Below are positions 1 to 13,805 of a stretch of 24,715 bases of DNA, one piece after another; positions within the stretch are counted from its first letter, which is position 1, and each line of letters opens with the position of its first letter. Where the stretch lies: the IMG/VR virus record IMGVR_UViG_3300017788_000010. One strand, 5' to 3'. The notes beneath the pieces are model-generated. The model was not told the DNA's origin and did not search any database. It was given only the letters and a program-made list of their open reading frames with translations. This DNA is from a virus (Duplodnaviria; Heunggongvirae; Uroviricota; Caudoviricetes). Position numbers and translations under genes: made by a program.

Positions 1-675
1 GAATACAGTAGTTAAGTTAGGCGCGTCTCCAAAAAAGACAAGCTGCTTAGTGGTCGATGTTATTGTGGATACGCTAACCGTGGTTGAACTATCGATAACA
101 ATATCCACTGATGATAAGAAAGAGAGTTTAGCGGAGCCCAGCTCTAGTATATGAAACTCTACGCCAGAAGACGCTCCTAGCGGCCCGAAGTTCTGTACAA
201 CCCCACCCGCCTTATACGTACCGCTATACGCCACCTTATCGTAGTTAACTAAAAGGACATCTGACCCAGGCTTTACGGGAACATGTCCATTAAAATCAGA
301 AAACAAAAAGGGATGCGTTACAGGCACAGCATTAGGAGCGCCGTCTACCGTACTTTCAGGCAATAGGCGAACATACGCGCGGTTCTCATCCACGATGAAC
401 ATTTCAACGCGATTAGCTGTTCTTCTAGACGGAAACGTGAACAGGGCTGGATGATCAACGAACTGGTTGAGTCCCACAGGGATGCCATCCGGAAAATACG
501 CAGCGTCGGCTACTGCAGCAGACACCGCATACGCGGGAATGGGCGCTTCTGAAGAGGGCTGTTTTACCTTAACATGACGAAGGTAGCTACCGAACCAGTG
601 CCCTAGGCCTGCGCTTAGATTACCGTTACGTAGAAGCGATAACGTGTGTGGTTTACTTATGAACTCTTTTTTCAT
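1..675 (-). CDS. Putative virion structural protein, N-terminal 225 aa (runs off the window start)
   Basis: Translated by hand: ATG at 675 overlaps the TGA of the upstream gene (ATGA) and the frame stays open to position 1 (MKKEFISKPHTLSLLRNGNLSAGLGHWFG...). Not in the supplied ORF track. Structural role inferred from context. Confidence 0.7.
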   Translation of the reverse strand, partial: MKKEFISKPHTLSLLRNGNLSAGLGHWFGSYLRHVKVKQPSSEAPIPAYAVSAAVADAAYFPDGIPVGLNQFVDHPALFTFPSRRTANRVEMFIVDENRAYVRLLPESTVDGAPNAVPVTHPFLFSDFNGHVPVKPGSDVLLVNYDKVAYSGTYKAGGVVQNFGPLGASSGVEFHILELGSAKLSFLSSVDIVIDSSTTVSVSTITSTTKQLVFFGDAPNLTTVF

Positions 676-1694
676 AACCGCTTACATAACAAGAAGTTAA
701 CAGAGACAGGCACTGCTTTGGCTTTCTTTATTTCGTGCTCGTGCGAAGCCTGCCCGTCTCGATCAGGCACGTCCACCCTACCAGAGGAACCAGTTGTTGA
801 AAACAATGAGTTTCTCTCTACGTATATCTTACTATCGAACCCGTCGAACAGTACTATGCCAGGATCCTCTTGCTGAAATAAGGATACGCTGGTGTGTAAT
901 ACATCACCTGCTGGGCCGTCTACGGCAGCAGGGAAATTACCGTGCTTCAACTTAATAGTAGGCTCATCAGAGACCCACGCCGCTGGCGGGTTACCTTCCT
1001 CTAACAAAGCGAAGCCGTCAGGGCAGGCTTTGCCTAGAGAAAGAACAATAGCTCCTTTAGGAAGAGACCTGGCTAGAACATCGCCTGTATATACAGCTTG
1101 ATCATAAGCACCAACAACCAAACCGCATTTTGTAAAGGACACCCGAGCATGTGTCTGCAGCTGATCTCTTATTATAGAAAACCCTACTCTATAAATGCGG
1201 CTTGTTACCGTGAACCGGAAGACAACGGTCGCCCATTCTGTGCCTGATACACGAACAACAGAGGGTCCTTCAAACTCGGCGGTTACAGGAACAGTAGTTC
1301 CAGAAGAAACGCCCGGTCCCTCTATTACTGGTGTTATGATTGCATCACCGAACGACGAGCGAACTTGCATAAATAAGGTATACGAGCCTTGCGGAAGTAC
1401 TTTTGCTTCTTCTACCGCATACCCCGCGGCTATGGACGATCGTATACCAGCGGGAGCGGGAGCAGGAAAATCAAACACACCCTGCTTGTTTTTACCAAAC
1501 TCCTGAGTGAACTTAAAAGGAGTGTCCGAGATCAGCTCTGTCGTTAAAAAACCAGCTACTCCATCACTAGGTGTGATAGAGTATCTGTTTTGGTTGGGGT
1601 AGAAAGTCCAAAAGGGTGTGCCGTCACCTAGTTCAAACGCCCCATTGTTCATCAAGTTTAGTAACTGATGAGTGGTGACAAATGTCTTAATCAC
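672..1694 (-). CDS. Putative tail fibre / tail-collar-like virion protein (340 aa)
   Basis: Long ORF. N-terminal NLMNNGAF..W jelly-roll-like motif. The C-terminus (LPKGAIVLSLGKACPDGF ... HEHEI ... VPVSVNFLLCKRL) resembles the collar/tip pattern of phage tail fibres. Confidence 0.55.
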   Translation of the reverse strand: MIKTFVTTHQLLNLMNNGAFELGDGTPFWTFYPNQNRYSITPSDGVAGFLTTELISDTPFKFTQEFGKNKQGVFDFPAPAPAGIRSSIAAGYAVEEAKVLPQGSYTLFMQVRSSFGDAIITPVIEGPGVSSGTTVPVTAEFEGPSVVRVSGTEWATVVFRFTVTSRIYRVGFSIIRDQLQTHARVSFTKCGLVVGAYDQAVYTGDVLARSLPKGAIVLSLGKACPDGFALLEEGNPPAAWVSDEPTIKLKHGNFPAAVDGPAGDVLHTSVSLFQQEDPGIVLFDGFDSKIYVERNSLFSTTGSSGRVDVPDRDGQASHEHEIKKAKAVPVSVNFLLCKRL

Positions 1695-2013
1695 GTTTCT
1701 TCGATTTTTTTATTCTAGGACGCGCTTCTCTAAACTGTATAGGCTTGTGCGTAGGCCTGCGCCAATGATTCTTTATATAAGACTCTTTTAAACGGGGGTT
1801 ACTTTGTATCTTCTCAGCCAGTCTCCCGAACGAGGCGCTCTTATTTAGCGGTCGCATGGAGACATACGACGTGTTCAGTCCTTGCCGCCTTGGTAATGGC
1901 TGAGGCTTGTGAAGAGACGCTTTGTGCCACAGCCCTTTAAAACGAGTTAGGCTGGCGGCTTTCTCTAGTCCAGAGATAATTGCTTTAGCGACGGCGGCGT
2001 TCATCGTCATCAC
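1687..2013 (-). CDS. Small basic hypothetical protein (LEKAA/LNKSA motif)
   Basis: ORF overlapping both neighbours in a co-directional run, K/R-rich. Start codon uncertain (2013, 2010 or 2004). Confidence 0.6.
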   Translation of the reverse strand: MMTMNAAVAKAIISGLEKAASLTRFKGLWHKASLHKPQPLPRRQGLNTSYVSMRPLNKSASFGRLAEKIQSNPRLKESYIKNHWRRPTHKPIQFREARPRIKKSKKRD

Positions 2014-2359
2014 GTCTTAATAGGCGGTGGCCTGCATACAAAGCACCGGCGGTGGCCGCATAAGGCAGCGCTTTTCTAGCTCTAGCGCCCCACTTAGCCG
2101 TACCGTGCCACTGCTTAGTTCTGTCCAAGGCTCCAGGCGCTATACCCCTCATCCCATCTATAAGCTGGCGTTTTGTGGATATTGCCGCTTTAAAAGGATT
2201 CAGACTTTTGTCCGCGGCGTTGATTGATAGGCGTTTACCTACATGATCAACCACCGCAGGTCTTTTGAACCCCTCAACAAAGGACTTAAAGCCCCCAGGC
2301 CCTGCACTACCGGCCGTTTTCTCTAGCTCACCAAAAAATCCCTTATCAAAACCCTTCAT
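1985..2359 (-). CDS. Small basic protein with N-terminal GFFGELEKTA motif; putative internal virion protein
   Basis: ORF in an overlapping gene run; motif shared with neighbours; C-terminal AATAGALYAG hydrophobic segment. Confidence 0.7.
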   Translation of the reverse strand: MKGFDKGFFGELEKTAGSAGPGGFKSFVEGFKRPAVVDHVGKRLSINAADKSLNPFKAAISTKRQLIDGMRGIAPGALDRTKQWHGTAKWGARARKALPYAATAGALYAGHRLLRRDDDERRRR

Positions 2360-5254: not shown

Positions 5255-5892
5255 TCATCCCGTAGGGAGCAGCGGGCTCCCTAGACCCTACTGTTACGTT
5301 AAGAGAAAACACCTTGCCAGCGTGCGGGTACATAGGGCGCGACTCCCTATACAGTAAGGTCGTTTCACAGAGGTAGCTCAAACAGTAGAGCGACTTCCAT
5401 ATATAGGTTCGCCTGGTTTCAATAGCTGGGCCTATTATAAGGGGAGCTTTGTCGACAAAGTCCCCCCTTATCCGAGGCACGCGTTAAACGCGCTGCTCTA
5501 TCACAGGTCTCCCGGCCTGTCGGTTAGCTGATGTACCATTCGCCCTAAGTAAGCTGTAAAACCCATTGGGCTATGTTGGGGGATTTGCTGGTTTATCCAT
5601 TATTGCTTCCTGAGAGGATAGCATAAAACCAGCTTTACCACAGACGCATCCAGAAAAAGATAAGTAACTAAGCGATACAGCTACTTAATTCGGAGCCTGT
5701 GGGAAGTTATCGCCGGGCCTGGAATAGTTTGGGGGTTTGGACACCCAGAAGCCTGATAAGACCCCTGTGGTTGGCGGATCCGCACAAAACCGCCATTAAA
5801 GAGCATGACAAAAAAGCATTCTTGCACACAAATCATGCGCCGTAAAGTTGCTACGGAAAGCGTCAGAGACGCGGGGCACAGCCCCCTTTTTT
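5255..5892 (+). ncRNA. Unassigned hairpin-dense ~640-nt non-coding region (one large or several small RNAs)
   Basis: No credible ORF. Many helices (5263-5270/5276-5283; 5437-5444/5463-5470; 5587-5594/5626-5633); ends in a GGGGC-ACA-GCCCC hairpin plus a T-run. Confidence 0.4.
5367..5437 (+). pseudogene. Degenerate tRNA-like sequence
   Basis: TA-GCTC-AAACAGTA-GAGC D-arm and a TTCAATA T-loop with a wobble-rich stem, but poor acceptor and anticodon stems and no CCA. Confidence 0.35.
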
Positions 5893-5905
5893 GTAAATGC
5901 CGTCA

Positions 5906-6019
5906 TGGCCGGACACGGTTGATTTTCAAGAACAGCTCAAGTAACTAGCCACACCCTCGCGTTACTTCGCGTATACGAGGCAGAAGCAGTCAGTAGCTGT
6001 TATTGATCGTGTCCGGCCA
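5906..6019 (+). ncRNA. Unassigned 114-nt rod-like RNA immediately upstream of tRNA-Thr
   Basis: Perfect 12-bp terminal helix TGGCCGGACACG/CGTGTCCGGCCA, extended by GTTGAT/ATTGAT; inner AACAGCT/AGCTGTT. Confidence 0.45.
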
Positions 6020-6057
6020 GCTTGCTGGAGTAGCTCAGTTGGTAGAGCTTTTGATTT

Positions 6058-6803
6058 GTTAGAATGATTTATTGTCTGCGTATCGTTGTCTTCGGACGTG
6101 TCGCCCAAAACCGCGATTTCTGCCCTTGTATGTAGATAGCTGTGAGTCACAGTTGTGGCATATGAGGCGTAAATTGGTTCTGTTGTTGTCGGTGTAGTCT
6201 CCATTGATATGGTCCAAAACAAAAAACAGTGGCTTGCCGTTCCAATTTCCTGGTTGGGCGCACAAGGCACATTTCTCTAGCTGGTCTTTCAATAACCAGG
6301 AACGGATAACGTCTCTTTGATAAGAAGAGATGCGCGTCTCCTGTCCTAATAACCAGCTGGCGATCTTTGTATCGGCCCTAAGTCTATGGAAGCATTCCAA
6401 ATTACAGAACCTCCGGTTAAGGGTACCTTTTCCGCAACTAAAACAACAAGAATCCTGGCGGAGTCTCGCTCTCTTAGGTTTCTTCCTGTTGTTGTAGCTA
6501 GCGGAGCAAGATCGAGAACAGAACGCGTTCACAGAACGTGCTTTGTCTTTTCGAGAAAACGTTATTTGACACTCAGCGCAGCAATAGGTCATAATACGGA
6601 CCTTTCTAGGGAAACCTATAAAGTGGACGCCGCTAAGTCGGGGAAACCTGTAAAATGGCAATCCCGAGCTAGCAGGTTCCTAAAAGAACCGGGCAAGTGT
6701 AGAGACTTTACACGGCGCACCCTAACGTAAAGCCGAGGGTGAAGAGAAAGTCCATCCCACTAGACTAGTGTAATGTAGTCGAACGAAAGTTCAAAGTGGG
6801 CAG
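6058..6803 (+). mobile_element. Group I self-splicing intron between tRNA positions 34 and 35
   Basis: P (AAGTCGGGGAAA 6635-6646), Q (AATCCCGAGC 6660-6669), R (GTAGAGACTT 6699-6708) and S (GAAGAGAAAGTCC 6741-6753) motifs; P7 GACTT/AAGTC; P3 CGCCG/CGGCG; GAAA-capped P9; terminal G; short P1 with a U34.G wobble. Confidence 0.88.
6059..6592 (-). CDS. HNH homing endonuclease with Cys-rich zinc-binding motifs, antisense within the intron
   Basis: CALC...LDHINGDYTDNNRTNLRLICHNC HNH signature. ATG at 6592 has an AGAAAGG SD and is preferred over the track start at 6661, which lies inside the ribozyme core. Confidence 0.85.
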   Translation of the reverse strand: MTYCCAECQITFSRKDKARSVNAFCSRSCSASYNNRKKPKRARLRQDSCCFSCGKGTLNRRFCNLECFHRLRADTKIASWLLGQETRISSYQRDVIRSWLLKDQLEKCALCAQPGNWNGKPLFFVLDHINGDYTDNNRTNLRLICHNCDSQLSTYKGRNRGFGRHVRRQRYADNKSF

Positions 6804-6849
6804 GTAATCAAAGGGTCATGGGTTCGAGTCCCATCTCCAGCTCCACACG

Positions 6850-6923
6850 GGGATCATAGTTCAATGGTAGAACAACGGACTTTTAATCCGTCTACCGGAG
6901 TTCGATTCTCCGTGATCCCACCA
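6850..6923 (+). tRNA. tRNA-Lys (UUU)
   Basis: Full cloverleaf, ACGGA-CTTTTAA-TCCGT, encoded CCA. Confidence 0.92.
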
Positions 6924-6932
6924 CCCAACAAT

Positions 6933-7008
6933 AGCTAGCCGTTACCACTCCGTTACCTTTCTCTTCAACAAGAGACCCATGTCACAGGATGGTAAATATT
7001 TGCTAGCA
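6933..7008 (+). ncRNA. Y-RNA-like element Y4 (short form)
   Basis: GCTAGC 6934-6939/7002-7007; inner TTACCA/TGGTAA and TCC/GGA; GTTACC at +18; apical TCTCTT/AAGAGA hairpin. Confidence 0.6.
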
Positions 7009-7010
7009 AT

Positions 7011-7045
7011 TCCCTGGTAGCTCAATGGTAGAGCAGCGCTTGTTA
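7011..7045 (+). pseudogene. Orphan 5' half of a tRNA (Asn-like, GUU)
   Basis: TCCCTGG-TA-GCTC-AATGGTA-GAGC-A-GCGC-TT-GTT-A. The anticodon-stem strand is 1 nt short and no matching 3' half (CCAGGGA) was seen nearby. Confidence 0.5.
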
Positions 7046-7070
7046 TGCCTCCACATATCTGTACATATTT

Positions 7071-7436
7071 GTGTATATGGATACATTAGAAAAGCACATC
7101 ACTAAGACATGTAAACAGCACGGAGAGACGATATACACCTACGTACCGAGTAGGAAACACTACCGCTGTTCACAGTGTCTAGGTGTGGCCGTAACGAAGC
7201 GGCGTCGAAAGCTGAAAGAGCTTGCCGTGGCGTACCTGGGCGGCGCATGCGCTGTCTGTGGGTACAACAAATGCGTAGCCGCTCTAGAGTTTCACCACAG
7301 AGACCCTGTGGCCAAGGACTTTAGCATATCAAGCACGGGTACTACACGATCTTTTGATAAGATTAAAGTAGAGCTGGATAAGTGCTTGCTTCTCTGCGCT
7401 AACTGTCACAGAGAACACCACGCCGGCGTAGAGTAA
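7071..7436 (+). CDS. HNH endonuclease, free-standing
   Basis: CAVCGY...LEFHHRDP...LDKCLLLCANCHREHH signature. Start at 7071 or 7077. Confidence 0.88.
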   Translation: MYMDTLEKHITKTCKQHGETIYTYVPSRKHYRCSQCLGVAVTKRRRKLKELAVAYLGGACAVCGYNKCVAALEFHHRDPVAKDFSISSTGTTRSFDKIKVELDKCLLLCANCHREHHAGVE

Positions 7437-7623: not shown

Positions 7624-8264
7624 TGCAAAGTCGGCTAAACTTGGTATACTATACCAAGCATGCTGACCACTGGGACCTATTTGTGGAAGATTGAGAAGAT
7701 AGTTAGTAAAGGAACCTATAACTACGCTGTGGTACGGAACCACCCAAAAGCAGACAAGCATGGGTACGTTTTGGAGCACCGCGTGGTAGTAGAAAACCAC
7801 CTGAACAGACTTCTCAATTCGGATGAAATTGTGCACCATAAAAATGGGCAGAAGAAAGACAACCGGATCACAAATCTGGAAGTACTAACTACCCTGGCGC
7901 ACAATCGTGAGCACAGTAAAGATGTCGGAAAAAGGTGGGTAACATTAAGGTGCCCAAACTGTTCCGCTCTTTTCGACAAGCCACGTAACCAAACTTTCCT
8001 GGATAAAGGAGGCGAGTCTACATGTTGCTCACGGCGATGCCGTGGTCAATTTAGTGCACGCATTCAGTACCAAGGAAGAACACAAATAGTGGAGGATGCC
8101 ATATCAGGGAATCTCGTACGGGAGTACCGCAAGTACTACCGCGACAACCCTGAGGAAACCGCCTAACTCGGGTTCCGCAGAGACTGTACGCATCCCACCT
8201 GAGACGGTGAAGATACAGTCCAGCCCACAACGCGAAAGCGGTCTACGTAAGTAGTCGTGGGAGG
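7624..8264 (+). mobile_element. Group I self-splicing intron, probably between tRNA positions 34 and 35
   Basis: P (ATATCAGGGAA 8101-8111), Q (AACCCTGAG 8146-8154), R (CAGAGACTG 8178-8186) and S (GAAGATACAGTCC 8209-8221); P7 GACTGT/ACAGTC; P3 5' strand GGATGC at 8094-8099 with a complement just after R; GAAA-capped P9; CCCAC/GTGGG as in the Thr intron. Confidence 0.87.
7660..8166 (+). CDS. Intron-encoded HNH homing endonuclease with C-terminal Cys motifs
   Basis: YVLEHRVV...EIVHHKNGQKKDNRITNLE HNH signature; CPNC and CCSRRC motifs. Confidence 0.88.
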   Translation: MLTTGTYLWKIEKIVSKGTYNYAVVRNHPKADKHGYVLEHRVVVENHLNRLLNSDEIVHHKNGQKKDNRITNLEVLTTLAHNREHSKDVGKRWVTLRCPNCSALFDKPRNQTFLDKGGESTCCSRRCRGQFSARIQYQGRTQIVEDAISGNLVREYRKYYRDNPEETA

Positions 8265-8395: not shown

Positions 8396-8635
8396 ATGCT
8401 ACGTGTACTTGTTTCTATCGTCGGCGCGGCCGCCATATTTACGATCGGATACCTCACCGGTCGCTTCATAACAAAGAAATACACTCGCAGTATGTTACGT
8501 CATGAGCTGGCGCTATTTTACAACGCAATAATCCAGAATATAAAGCTCGGCAAAGAAAGCCGTGAAAGACTTGATTCTATCTACGCTACACAAGTCCCCG
8601 ACCTAGAACCTTACGAAAGAAACGACTTCCAGTGA
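8396..8635 (+). CDS. Small membrane protein (79 aa)
   Basis: AAAGGA SD at 8381-8386 supports a start at 8393 or 8396 rather than 8273 (inside the tRNA); N-terminal transmembrane helix. Confidence 0.6.
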   Translation: MLRVLVSIVGAAAIFTIGYLTGRFITKKYTRSMLRHELALFYNAIIQNIKLGKESRERLDSIYATQVPDLEPYERNDFQ

Positions 8636-9510
8636 CTCGTTACAACGATGGCCCGTCCCTCAAGGGAATTGTCTTCACAGTCTTGACCGTCGTGGCGCTG
8701 GCAATCGCAGCGCTCCTGGGAGTGAGCTCCTGGGAAACGGCCGAGCCCGGTACGGTGAAAGTGCCTGTGCTCTTCGGCGAGCTGCAGCGCAAGGAGCTGC
8801 GCGGCCCGGAATTCACCAATCCTTTCTATGAGTGGAGAGAGTATGACCTCAAGATGCAAACAGAGGTCATGGAGGACATCTCCATTTTCACACAGGATCA
8901 ATTGCCTGTCGTTGGCGACATCACGGTACAGTGGCAACTGAACCCGGAGTCGGTTTTCGACGTGGCTATGACCATCGGGACGATGCGCGATCTGGATACA
9001 AAGATCGTACTACCTGCCATCAGGGGCGCCGTGCGTGATGCTGGCAAGATGCTCAAGAGCAATTCGGATCTGTTTACTCCAGAAGGTGAAGCCGTCTTCT
9101 CAAAGACTTTCCGAGAGCAGCTAGAGGAGTCCGTCAGTAAACACATCACGATCCTAGCGGTTATTACGCGCGACATGGTCCCTCCTCAGGAGGTTCAAAA
9201 CGCGATTGTTGCAAAAATAAAGGCTGCCCAAGAGGTGGAGCAGCAGAAAGCCATTCTGGACAAGAAGGACCTGGAATCGCAAGAGCGGATCAGGATCTCA
9301 AAATCCGAGCGAGAGGCCTCCGAGAACACGGCCGCTGCCAAAAAAATACTGGCCGATGCAGAAGCATACTCTATCACAGAGGTGGGTAAAGCCCTCGCGG
9401 CAACGCCGGGGGTTGTGCAGCTGCGGTATCTGGAGAGGTGGGATGGAAAGCTGCCCACTATGATGCTCGGCGATGGCGGTAACATGATGATCCAGCTGCC
9501 GGTAAAATGA
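8632..9510 (+). CDS. SPFH / Band 7 / prohibitin-family membrane protein
   Basis: N-terminal transmembrane helix, SPFH core, AI.AK..A.Q coiled coil, and the C-terminal ERWDGKLP motif typical of phage SPFH proteins. Confidence 0.88.
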   Translation: MTRYNDGPSLKGIVFTVLTVVALAIAALLGVSSWETAEPGTVKVPVLFGELQRKELRGPEFTNPFYEWREYDLKMQTEVMEDISIFTQDQLPVVGDITVQWQLNPESVFDVAMTIGTMRDLDTKIVLPAIRGAVRDAGKMLKSNSDLFTPEGEAVFSKTFREQLEESVSKHITILAVITRDMVPPQEVQNAIVAKIKAAQEVEQQKAILDKKDLESQERIRISKSEREASENTAAAKKILADAEAYSITEVGKALAATPGVVQLRYLERWDGKLPTMMLGDGGNMMIQLPVK

Positions 9511-10125: not shown

Positions 10126-11697
10126 GTGACAAGATACGGACAACACACTACTTATACACAGAGGGAGCAGGCCCCGGGAACCGTTGCAAACAACGGCGGC
10201 GGCTTCTCCTTCCAATTAGACAAATGGAAACAACTCGATCGCTTTCTGATTTTAGGAAGTGAGGGCGGTACTTATTACGTTGGTGAGCGCAAACTGACCA
10301 GACAAAACGCCACCTGCATAGAGGCGTGCATACAAGAAGATCCGGCAAGGACTGTTCGCAGAATAGAGGAGATCAGCGTAGGTGGAAGAGCTCACAAGAA
10401 CGCGCCCGCCGTGTTCGCTCTCTCGCTGTGCGCCTCCAGCAAAAACCTCGCGGCGAGACAGCTCGCTCTAGAGGCAATGAAGCGGGTATGTCGCACCAGC
10501 ACAGACCTCTTCTCATTTATCGGCGATGTCCAGGAACAGCGTGGTTGGGGCCACTCGTTCAAAAAGGCTGTGTCGCGCTGGTATCTGAGCAAGACTCCTG
10601 AAGCCTTGGCCTATCAGCTGGTCAAATATCGCCAGAGAGAAGGGTGGTCACACAGAGACGCCATACGGCTCTCGCACCCTAAGGCGCATAACATCCCTAT
10701 GAACCACCTACTAGGGTGGGCGGTCGACAAGCACAACGACCTGTCCACGCTTCCGGCGTTGGTGCGGGACTTCACGGATCTGCAGACATGCTCCTCCGTG
10801 AAAGACGCTGTCCGTGTCATACAGCGCAACTCGGCGCTGACCTGGGAAATGGTGCCGACGGAGCTACTGGCGCACAACGCTGTGTGGCGCGCTCTGCTAC
10901 CGAACATGCCGCTGACGGCCATGTTGCGCAATCTCGGAAGAATGACCGCCTACGGTACACTAACCGAACTATCTGACGAAATCGCTACGGTTCGTTCGAA
11001 GATGTTGGATGAGACGTACTTGAAAAAGTCACGCGTGCATCCGATGGCTATTCTGAACGCGTTGCTGGTGTATGGAAAGGGGCACGGTCTCAAAGGCTCG
11101 CTATCCTGGACTCCTCAGCAAGAAATCAAAACAATACTCAATGAGGCGTTCTACCTGTCCTTCAAAACAGTGGAGCCCATCAACAAGAGCGTTATGATAG
11201 CGCTAGACGTTTCTGGTTCTATGGGTACCACCATAGGACAAAACGTTATGAGCTGCAGAGACGCTACGGCGGCGCTATCCCTAGTGACGGCCCGGACAGA
11301 GCCTCGCCATATAATCAAAATGTTCCAAAAAAGTTTGTCCGATTGCCCGATTGTGGCTGGCGATACGCTGGAAACAGCGATTCGTAAGATAAACGGGATA
11401 CCGTTCGGAGCGACAGATTGCGCCTCACCTATCACGTGGGCGACTGCGAACAAGGTGCCTGTCGACCTTTTCGCAATCTACACGGATAACGAGACCAACG
11501 GGTCGTCTATGCACCCTAACAAGGCCCTGGAGAAATACCAGCAGGCCATGGGCAGGGCTGCTAGAATGGTAGTGGTGGGTATGACCTCCACCGGGTTCAC
11601 CATAAGTGATCCGAACAATCCCAACTGTTTGGACGTTGTGGGGTTCGATACCGACACACCGAACCTGATCTCGGCCTTCGGGCGCGGCGAGATCTGA
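10126..11697 (+). CDS. rsr: Ro60 / Rsr ribonucleoprotein (TROVE domain plus vWA domain)
   Basis: N..GGFSF...LDRFLILGSEGGTYY, KYRQREGWSHRD, MPLTAMLRNLGRMT, HPMAILNA and vWA MIDAS motif DVSGSM ... TDNET: the full Ro60 signature set. Confidence 0.95.
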   Translation: MTRYGQHTTYTQREQAPGTVANNGGGFSFQLDKWKQLDRFLILGSEGGTYYVGERKLTRQNATCIEACIQEDPARTVRRIEEISVGGRAHKNAPAVFALSLCASSKNLAARQLALEAMKRVCRTSTDLFSFIGDVQEQRGWGHSFKKAVSRWYLSKTPEALAYQLVKYRQREGWSHRDAIRLSHPKAHNIPMNHLLGWAVDKHNDLSTLPALVRDFTDLQTCSSVKDAVRVIQRNSALTWEMVPTELLAHNAVWRALLPNMPLTAMLRNLGRMTAYGTLTELSDEIATVRSKMLDETYLKKSRVHPMAILNALLVYGKGHGLKGSLSWTPQQEIKTILNEAFYLSFKTVEPINKSVMIALDVSGSMGTTIGQNVMSCRDATAALSLVTARTEPRHIIKMFQKSLSDCPIVAGDTLETAIRKINGIPFGATDCASPITWATANKVPVDLFAIYTDNETNGSSMHPNKALEKYQQAMGRAARMVVVGMTSTGFTISDPNNPNCLDVVGFDTDTPNLISAFGRGEI

Positions 11698-13474: not shown

Positions 13475-13805
13475 TGACCCTTGCATTGTGGGCAGGCCGG
13501 CCTGTGCGGGGTCATATGTTGGGGGAGGTGGTCGACCGAAAGCGGCGACCTCCCCCATTTGCGTACTTCTACGTGGGCTAGGCCACGATAAACAGGTCTT
13601 TAAGCCTAGCGCGTTGAAAAGGTAGACGAGCCTTAGTATCTTTGCGACTAGTCACCGCTCTGATGCAAACGGCCCCGGAAGTTCTTATCCTGCTATAGAT
13701 CTTCTGAAAAAAAAAGCAGACAGCAGCGAGCTGTGGAAGAGCCGGGCACGGCTCTAGCACACAAAAGGCGGTGGGGGTTGCGCAACTCCCACCGCTTCTT
13801 TTTTT
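13475..13805 (+). ncRNA. Unassigned ~330-nt structured non-coding transcript
   Basis: Lies between a promoter motif and a terminator, has no credible ORF and contains several strong hairpins. Confidence 0.45.
13768..13805 (+). terminator. Intrinsic terminator
   Basis: GCGGTGGGGG/CTCCCACCGC stem plus TTCTTTTTT. Confidence 0.75.

Follow-up and report, generated by a model that had tools for sequence, protein, structure and literature searches.

How does a transfer RNA (tRNA) gene remain functional when its anticodon loop is interrupted by several hundred nucleotides (nt) that carry a second gene on the opposite strand, and how did the two come to share one locus? The question is raised by positions 6024–6845 of IMG/VR record IMGVR_UViG_3300017788_000010, a 24,715-nt stretch of DNA (the window) that appears to be viral and probably derives from a phage. 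Here a gene for tRNA-Thr(UGU) is split by a group I intron, and an HNH endonuclease gene runs antisense to the ribozyme. The locus is, in our judgement, quite probably a composite mobile element within a tRNA array, in which an intron inserted between U34 and G35 carries in its L1 loop an HNH homing gene that was captured beside tRNA-Thr.

The split tRNA gene and its ribozyme

In the 5′ exon (6024–6057, plus strand), which comprises tRNA positions 1–34, the acceptor strand is GCUGGAG; the D arm follows, UUUGA forms the 5′ side of the anticodon stem, and the closing UUU ends at the wobble base U34. The 3′ exon (6804–6845, plus strand) starts at G35 and supplies positions 35–73 and an encoded CCA; it reads GUAA, UCAAA, a 5-nt variable loop, the T arm, CUCCAGC, the discriminator U6842 and CCA at 6843–6845. 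Joining 6057 to 6804 in silico yields a canonical 76-nt tRNA-Thr(tgt) according to ARAGORN, and the first-pass annotation of this DNA, which had proposed a tRNA-Thr(UGU) gene split by a group I intron past U34, thus had the coordinates right. It had also held that a perfect tRNA results only if the intron spans 6058–6803. That register is indeed the one we chose, because it alone places a U at position −1 and a G at the omega position, but GU is present at each junction (6058–6059 and 6804–6805), such that three registers produce an identical mature tRNA. Without its intron option, ARAGORN missed the split tRNA-Thr gene; with introns allowed, it returned a split tRNA at exactly 6024–6845, mislabelled as Phe(aaa).

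HNH relatives that are 85% and 80% identical to the window protein were found on contigs from two other sequencing runs (L001 and L002). In both, the Rfam group I intron model RF00028 lies on the strand opposite the open reading frame (ORF), and the alignment of the contigs to the window begins at the 5′ exon and ends at the CCA, while the flanks differ. At these sister loci the introns measure 747 and 748 nt, and their removal in silico leaves a tRNA-Thr(tgt) in either case. Comparison of the three loci (window, L001 and L002) reveals compensatory or wobble changes between the exons at acceptor pairs 3–70 (U-A/C-G), 4–69 (G-C/A-U) and 6–67 (A-U/U-G) and at anticodon-stem pair 27–43 (U-A/C-G). 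Because the exon stems covary, both halves are evidently maintained as a single tRNA.

The intron itself (6058–6803, plus strand) is 746 nt long and matches RF00028. Its host is a tRNA-Thr, it is inserted past the third base of the anticodon loop, it follows a U at −1 and it ends in the omega G at 6803, an alignment column that is G in all 30 introns compared; these features define type Thr.3Ug. The RF00028 match spans 6580–6772 on the plus strand and, at 54.3 bits (E 2e-11), exceeds the gathering score of 50; the corresponding scores are 57.6 bits at L001 and 54 at L002.

That annotation had further described the ribozyme core as intact, which is borne out by an alignment of 30 sequences (A3), mostly from viral contigs, that runs from P2 to the end of the tRNA. 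P2 (6603–6622, plus strand) is capped by a GAAA loop (6611–6614) and preceded by J1/2 (6601–6602); in L002 its mismatch occupies a different position inside the helix. The catalytic core, P3 to P9, extends over 6628–6800 of the same strand. It consists of P3 (6628–6632/6713–6717), P4 (6638–6643/6662–6667), P5 (6647–6648/6657–6658), P6 and P6a (6668–6698), P7 (G6702-C6753 and 6704–6707/6749–6752, with A6703 bulged), P8 (6718–6741) and P9 (6756–6760/6796–6800), the last with hairpins at 6763–6780 and 6781–6792. RNAalifold recovers P2, P3, P4, P5, P6, P8, P9 and the two P9 hairpins from A3. With P7 added, 96.4% of cells are paired, as against 28–43% in controls with slid partners, and 36 of the 51 pairs show compensatory change; no shuffle equals the observed values. 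P7 is paired in every sequence, with compensatory change in three of its five pairs. Cells of the window, L001 and L002 that score as unpaired in P2, P6 and the P9 hairpins reflect MAFFT offsets where the elements differ in length, and the hairpins are intact on direct reading.

Divergence of the window from the two sister loci is 10–18% in the exons and 12–17% in the body of the ORF, as compared with 1.0–3.5% from P2 to the omega G, where the few changes are confined to P2 and to loops. The core (6603–6803) thus diverges 5 to 10 times less than the adjoining exons and ORF, and ribozyme constraint by itself may explain this.

The presentation of the 5′ splice site to this core was modelled with a two-strand fold (6050–6084 with 6573–6625). 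In the window, L001 and L002 alike, the fold contains a P1 in which U32, U33 and U34 of the exon and G+1 and U+2 of the intron (6055–6059, plus strand; splice site after 6057) pair with 6596–6600, followed by a small internal loop and a closing helix of 17 base pairs (bp), P1a. U34 is wobble-paired to G6598. The 3′ strand of P1 belongs to the internal guide sequence (6595–6600, plus strand), of which 6595–6597 may pair with 6804–6806 to form P10. The location of the guide matches that of the YGAG guide in 27 relatives in A3, which in all ORF-less ones stands 2–3 nt ahead of the GAAA-capped P2; the window bases at this position are CGGA (6597–6600), and the guide is invariant across the three antisense loci. 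In P1a, 6064–6081 (plus strand), the complement of the final HNH codons, pairs with 6576–6592 (plus strand), the complement of the HNH start codon and first codons, leaving U6075 bulged. With an energy of −22.5 kcal/mol, this duplex is the best among 8180 windows over the 24.7 kb, about 6 standard deviations under the mean, and it is also held in the full-length minimum-energy fold. The ORF (6059–6592) nearly coincides with loop L1 (6060–6595), and in the sense RNA its first codons are base-paired with its last.

In the better model, an ORF-filled L1 would be closed by P1a, with P1 formed by 6055–6059/6596–6600. The local P1 of the first-pass annotation (AUUU at 6054–6057 with GAAU at 6062–6065, loop GUUA) is not conserved, as G6062 is replaced by A in L002 and U6065 by C in L001 and L002, both changes being synonymous in the HNH gene. 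We also set aside an alternative hairpin (6052–6059/6064–6071), whose bases form the far stronger P1a and which lacks the placement of the homologous guide adjoining P2, and the ‘first hairpin’ of the Rfam match (6587–6602), which is not conserved, with G6587 being A in L001 and L002.

The intron has many relatives. A scan with an exact P4-P5 motif pattern identified 53 viral contigs, for 43 of which ARAGORN called a split host tRNA. The majority are introns of ∼200 nt in tRNA genes, apparently past U34 of Leu(UAA), Arg(UCU) or Thr(UGU), host labels that are approximate because the all-register ARAGORN search is too permissive. A3 aligns the window intron with introns of tRNA-Leu(UAA), Arg and Thr, and its core is 58–71% identical to those of viral-contig tRNA-Leu(UAA) introns at the same U34 site. 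The host tRNA is therefore not the unusual one that had been supposed: Thr.3Ug is already a seed in the gpI.sto supplement of Williams (2020; bioRxiv 10.1101/2020.01.27.920355), and ORF-less cases occur on viral contigs (L056 and L057). The seeds in that supplement include Thr.3Ug, represented by Mti5.Thr.3Ug, as well as Thr.5Ug and Thr.2Ug. Another locus, L025, contains at 1354–2274 (plus strand) what by eye is a tRNA-Asn(GUU) with an intron past U36, and ARAGORN calls it Pro(cgg).

The antisense HNH gene, its family and its expression

The gene on the opposite strand (6059–6592, minus strand) fills L1 and encodes 177 amino acids, with two Cys4 ‘FCS’-type zinc-finger-like modules at the N-terminus and an HNH core at the C-terminus. 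It starts with an ATG at 6592–6590, a Shine-Dalgarno-like GAAAGG lies 8 nt ahead of this codon, and its stop is the complement of 6059–6061. The first-pass annotation had located this HNH ORF, with its own Shine-Dalgarno sequence, upstream of the core, and the gene is found there; its stop codon is 1 nt from the 5′ splice site as described, but the local P1 loop in which it was supposed to sit is the one that is not conserved.

Several lines of evidence point to an HNH protein as the product. It matches PHROG HNH families (phrog_10822 at E 1.4e-20, others at 2.7e-13 and 1.9e-10), scores 18.7 bits against Pfam HNH_3 (under the cut-off of 24.8), and in a profile search of the PDB finds the Cas9 HNH domain (E 0.007) and an FCS zinc finger (E 0.07). 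Residues Cys108, Cys111, Asp127, His128, Asn140, Cys145, Asn147 and Cys148 are invariant or nearly so among 37 homologues, and all are present in the window protein, giving it the Asp-His pair, the downstream Asn residues and the two CxxC zinc pairs of an HNH site. The N-terminal half contains two CxxC...FCSxSC-like modules. An AlphaFold model has a mean confidence score (pLDDT) of 88.2, and its top Foldseek matches are nearly all HNH proteins (Cas9, Cap5, McrA, T4 endonuclease VII and PacI), at weak similarity (best E 0.02, TM score about 0.3). Across the window, L001 and L002, the ratio of nonsynonymous to synonymous substitution rates (dN/dS) is 0.16–0.23 at dS 0.37–0.67. Four of the five other frames give values of about 0.6–1.3, and the opposite-strand mirror frame gives 0.21–0.32, a known echo of selection on the true frame. 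Each locus has one stop, at the same position, and no indel occurs over 534 nt. These comparisons indicate that the minus-strand ORF is a real gene under selection.

The closest relatives outside introns suggest where the gene may have come from. All of those for which the surrounding DNA was examined (P0005, P0006, P0007 and P0009; 43–48% identical in alignment A2, with P0004, at 44%, left out of this comparison of DNA context) are free-standing, and each has an unsplit tRNA-Thr(UGU) gene at a distance of 2–41 nt, as does the more distant P0044 (39%). A search of viral contigs for the family returned 426 relatives, of which 80 were kept, and nearly all of these adjoin tRNA genes. On a maximum-likelihood tree of 72 proteins, with neighbour labels drawn from 85 family loci, the identity of the neighbouring tRNA is strongly clustered: 25 label changes are needed as against a shuffled mean of 47, and none of 200 shuffles is as low. 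There are clades beside Ile(UAU), Ser(UGA) and Arg(UCU) and a paraphyletic set beside Thr(UGU). The intron-borne clade has a support of 99 and by path is nearest to the Thr-adjacent L003, L005 and L010. At two further loci, a free-standing HNH gene adjoins a tRNA-Thr(UGU) gene interrupted at this very position by an intron that lacks an ORF: in L056 it ends 2 nt ahead of a tRNA gene with an intron of ∼200 nt, and in L057 it starts 15 nt past the tRNA gene. Members of one HNH family thus occur in three states: next to the intact presumed target, next to a target already split by an ORF-less intron, and within the intron itself.

The viral contigs held no close relative of the window HNH protein and no match to the exact 3′-exon pattern, and the contig index held no match to the exact protein. 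Two other HNH genes lie within 1.6 kb of the window intron, at 7071–7436 and 7660–8166 (both plus strand; PHROG E 8.5e-33 and 3.4e-17); the profile of the Thr-intron HNH family finds neither of them, and the array therefore holds three unrelated HNH lineages. L005, where a family member follows tRNA-Thr(UGU), is a contig (1–5405) that appears to be bacterial chromosome, as it encodes a histidine kinase, a response regulator and an alpha-amylase-like protein, with a second HNH_3 fragment on the opposite side; the family is thus not confined to phages. On eight IMG/VR contigs (L063–L070), ARAGORN predicts at about 1860–1935 (plus strand) a tRNA whose anticodon (ttat) has four bases, 9 nt past a 276-amino-acid family member; this tRNA could decode quadruplets or reflect a parsing error. 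The viral contig L075 carries a transfer-messenger RNA gene (341–695, minus strand; Rfam 71.7 bits) ∼800 nt from a family member, and near 2118 (minus strand) R- and S-like group I motifs that Rfam does not call.

Since the HNH gene lies opposite the ribozyme strand, it must have its own transcript, as the first-pass annotation had reasoned. The flanks of the three loci differ, and any shared promoter would therefore need to be located in the complement of the ribozyme or of the 3′ exon. The complement of the ribozyme stretch, the sole shared sequence upstream of the antisense gene, may carry both promoter and leader and may in this way add to the constraint on the core. On the sense strand, a sigma-70-like site is found inside the intron at 6566–6595 (TTGACA-18-CATAAT, 11/12), aimed at the core with a start near P2. 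Its −10 element is weaker in L001 and L002 (CATGAT), its bases are also fixed by N-terminal HNH codons, and it may be due to chance. A terminator-like site on the plus strand (6524–6540) is probably not a terminator, as its T-run is not conserved in L001 and L002. In the tRNA-Leu intron L092, a consensus TTGACA-17-TATAAT stands just ahead of a sense HNH ORF; at least some intron-borne HNH genes of the family therefore have their own promoter.

Orientation, mechanism and competing explanations

Six ORF-bearing layouts with the same intron core were compared for orientation. The ORF is in the sense orientation and in L1 in L107 and L130, and in the sense orientation after P6 in L092 and L117; it is antisense and in L1 in the window, L001 and L002, and antisense in the P6 loop in L088. 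The last of these is a tRNA-Leu(UAG) intron on a viral contig, in which the ORF is closed by a 10-bp stem whose complement provides the gene's Shine-Dalgarno sequence. Rfam does not call L088, L092 and L117, in which the ORF splits the core, or L107 at the gathering score, and these were judged from sequence. The backwards orientation is therefore not singular, contrary to what had been proposed; the layout is recurrent, and the window is its tRNA-Thr, L1 version. A search of metagenome contigs for further antisense-layout relatives gave only three distant matches. An inversion via terminal inverted repeats was considered as an idea and set aside: the cassette ends are ∼82% complementary at the DNA level, with no exact 6-mer seed, and a repeat search was silent.

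In the mechanism that we favour, the precursor tRNA would be transcribed together with the plus-strand tRNA array. Pairing of the ends of the 534-nt insert in P1a would bring the 5′ splice site, marked by the U34-G6598 wobble, beside P2, and the P3–P9 core would then excise the intron in two guanosine-dependent steps, using the omega G at 6803 and a P10 between 6804–6806 and 6595–6597, to leave tRNA-Thr(UGU). Splicing is thus a prediction from the ribozyme structure modelled in silico. The HNH mRNA would be made from the minus strand from a putative promoter, and its product would most likely recognise a tRNA-Thr(UGU) gene that lacks the element and nick or cut it, upon which repair would copy in both the intron and the gene; the gene is intact, and this activity of its product is predicted. 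Comparison of the loci further makes it plausible that the HNH gene was captured from a free-standing lineage lying directly beside tRNA-Thr(UGU) genes. This origin fits the model of ‘collaborative homing followed by illegitimate recombination’ (PMC3984707).

A number of observations weigh against this account. P1 is weak, with five pairs that include two G-U and an energy of about −1.4 kcal/mol. It shows no variation among the three loci and thus gains no support from covariation, so that the P1 model is based on positional homology and thermodynamics, and substitutions in P1a preserve pairing in four of six cases, no better than chance for transitions. The core is 56–64% identical to other Thr introns, and the nearest relative is a tRNA-Leu intron (L107, 71%). 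On the minus strand, 5800–7200 contains no sigma-70-like consensus site (a relaxed scan gave at best TTGAAC-16-TACACT, 8/12 matches), and the recurrent plus-strand motif of the element is absent upstream of the HNH gene. The intron-borne clade is placed in a polytomy, which makes descent from Thr-adjacent genes a nearest-neighbour reading. The claim of mobility is weakened by the failure to find, among viral and metagenome contigs, an intron-less tRNA-Thr allele from the lineage of the window phage. Finally, no close match was found among deposited phages, including in a search with a 775-amino-acid neighbour protein.

If the gene is real, it could still use the intron merely as a safe harbour, with the endonuclease cutting outside the insertion site, for example elsewhere in the tRNA array, and driving inheritance of its neighbourhood, in the manner of SegB in the T4 tRNA cluster, instead of homing of the intron as a unit. 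The family consists mostly of free-standing genes amid tRNA genes of many identities, the ribozyme and the HNH protein of the window differ in their nearest relatives, two additional HNH genes lie within 1.6 kb, and T4 SegB is a precedent for an endonuclease of a tRNA cluster (PMC2330249). We nevertheless regard this arrangement as improbable, given how closely the identity of the neighbouring tRNA tracks the HNH phylogeny, that the closest relatives with DNA examined adjoin tRNA-Thr(UGU) specifically, and that intron, ORF and exons stay together in three assemblies whose flanks differ. A gene that is not real, either a decaying passenger or a chance reverse-strand frame of a structured RNA that yields no protein, would account for the promoter scan of the minus strand that found none and for the Pfam HNH_3 score under the cut-off. 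It already conflicts with the dN/dS values at the three loci (0.16–0.23 at dS 0.37–0.67), with the single stop in the same place and the lack of indels over 534 nt, with the retention of every family-invariant residue and with a confident model (pLDDT 88), and is scarcely credible.

It is also very improbable that the split gene is a dead tRNA, with splicing lost and the phage relying on another tRNA-Thr. The short, G-U-rich P1 and the large L1 insert would suit such a state, and with the view limited to the window a second tRNA-Thr could be elsewhere in the genome; on the other side stand the exon stems, whose pairing is kept by compensatory changes, the core, 5 to 10 times less diverged than its surroundings, and the presence of U−1, the omega G, P7 with its bulged A and P10. 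A further proposal concerns the orientation itself, which might be functional: transcription of the tRNA array would silence the HNH gene and transcription of the HNH gene would dampen splicing, providing the selfish element with a timing switch. The ribosome-binding site and start codon of the HNH mRNA are the complements of J1/2 and the start of P2 (6601–6606) and of the end of P1a (6590–6592), and the precursor tRNA and the excised intron are perfect antisense to this mRNA. Because the ends of the cassette are self-complementary, L1 would close for either orientation of the cassette. We consider such a switch unlikely, if less so than the safe-harbour arrangement. If it did operate, the window and L088 would point to a widespread class of mobile introns, as yet undescribed, that reside in the tRNA genes of phages and are regulated by antisense RNA.

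Known systems, viral setting and significance

The window intron shares with the Thr.3Ug introns of Williams (2020) the same tRNA, the U34|G35 site (loop positions 3/4), U−1, the omega G, the order of P1, J1/2 and a GAAA-capped P2, and the core motifs. The Thr.3Ug seeds, like L056 and L057, differ from it in being ORF-less, about 200 nt long and equipped with a P1 of the form CUUG-loop-CGAG, whereas the window has U32, the guide CGGA, a 534-nt opposite-strand gene in L1 and the 17-bp closing helix. Williams (2020) states that introns over about 400 bp ‘may contain’ genes, with no mention of strand or phages. The window intron belongs to the same family as the cyanobacterial and plastid tRNA-Leu(UAA) IC3 intron and the introns of tRNA-fMet, Ile-CAU and Arg-CCU, four classical types that, according to Williams (2020), are marked as IC3 in the intron database cited there. 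In contrast to these chromosomal or plastid introns, it resides in a different tRNA and in a probable phage.

Antisense endonuclease genes have been described in Didymium and in other nuclear ribosomal DNA (rDNA) introns (PMC3073962, PMC3679873). In the case of Dir.S956-2 in the rDNA of Didymium iridis (Johansen et al., 2006), to the extent that these two papers relate it, the gene for I-DirII, like that of the window, lies opposite the strand of a group I ribozyme, in a peripheral element, and depends, as the window gene would, on a promoter of its own. By the same accounts, I-DirII is eukaryotic, has an rRNA host, is of the His-Cys-box type and uses an RNA polymerase II promoter, a spliceosomal intron and a poly(A) tail, while the window gene encodes an HNH protein, with a Shine-Dalgarno sequence, a tRNA host, a probable phage setting and a putative promoter. 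The review PMC3984707, which describes invasion and collaborative-homing models, does not discuss ORF orientation. All three stages predicted by the collaborative-homing model are present here for one HNH family and one target gene; the published cases concern protein-coding genes of phages, whereas the present one has a tRNA gene as target and an inverted captured gene, in an order of events that is deduced. The location of an endonuclease gene among phage tRNA genes recalls T4 SegB (PMC2330249), a GIY-YIG enzyme that is not intron-borne; the family of the window gene is HNH with Cys4 modules, and its clades track the neighbouring tRNAs. An incomplete library of literature contained nothing on group I introns in phage tRNA genes; the antisense endonuclease genes of group I introns that it reported all came from eukaryotic nuclear rDNA, none being bacterial or from phages.

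The viral assignment of the window is suggested by its tRNA array, which contains three HNH genes, by matches to PHROG families and by the many ORFs that belong to no family. The protein cluster of the window HNH gene is listed on contigs of up to 132 kb, and the relatives of both intron and HNH gene come from IMG/VR. Just downstream of the tRNA array are genes for an SPFH/Band 7 protein (8632–9510, plus strand) and a Ro60 protein (10126–11697, plus strand; TROVE and Ro60 vWA domains, E 1.7e-56), and a match to the Pistol ribozyme (RF02679) is found at 13572–13627 (plus strand; 46.5 bits against a gathering score of 34.5).

As of 2014, all known phage introns were in protein-coding genes, despite the many tRNA genes of phages (PMC3984707). 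The 53 viral contigs with tRNA introns mean that this rule fails, if the IMG/VR contigs are truly viral. Because tRNA finders miss or mislabel the split gene, inventories of phage tRNAs and analyses of codon usage undercount such tRNAs. An antisense gene with bacterial-type expression signals raises the question of how it is transcribed and how its mRNA interacts with the complementary RNA. The host tRNA and the insertion site were known; what is new is the large family to which the HNH gene belongs and whose members on viral contigs adjoin tRNA genes. As a natural series for the proposed origin of mobile introns, the three states of this family are unusually complete, and the target is a tRNA gene. 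The HNH relatives beside unsplit tRNA-Thr genes thus suggest how mobile introns get assembled.

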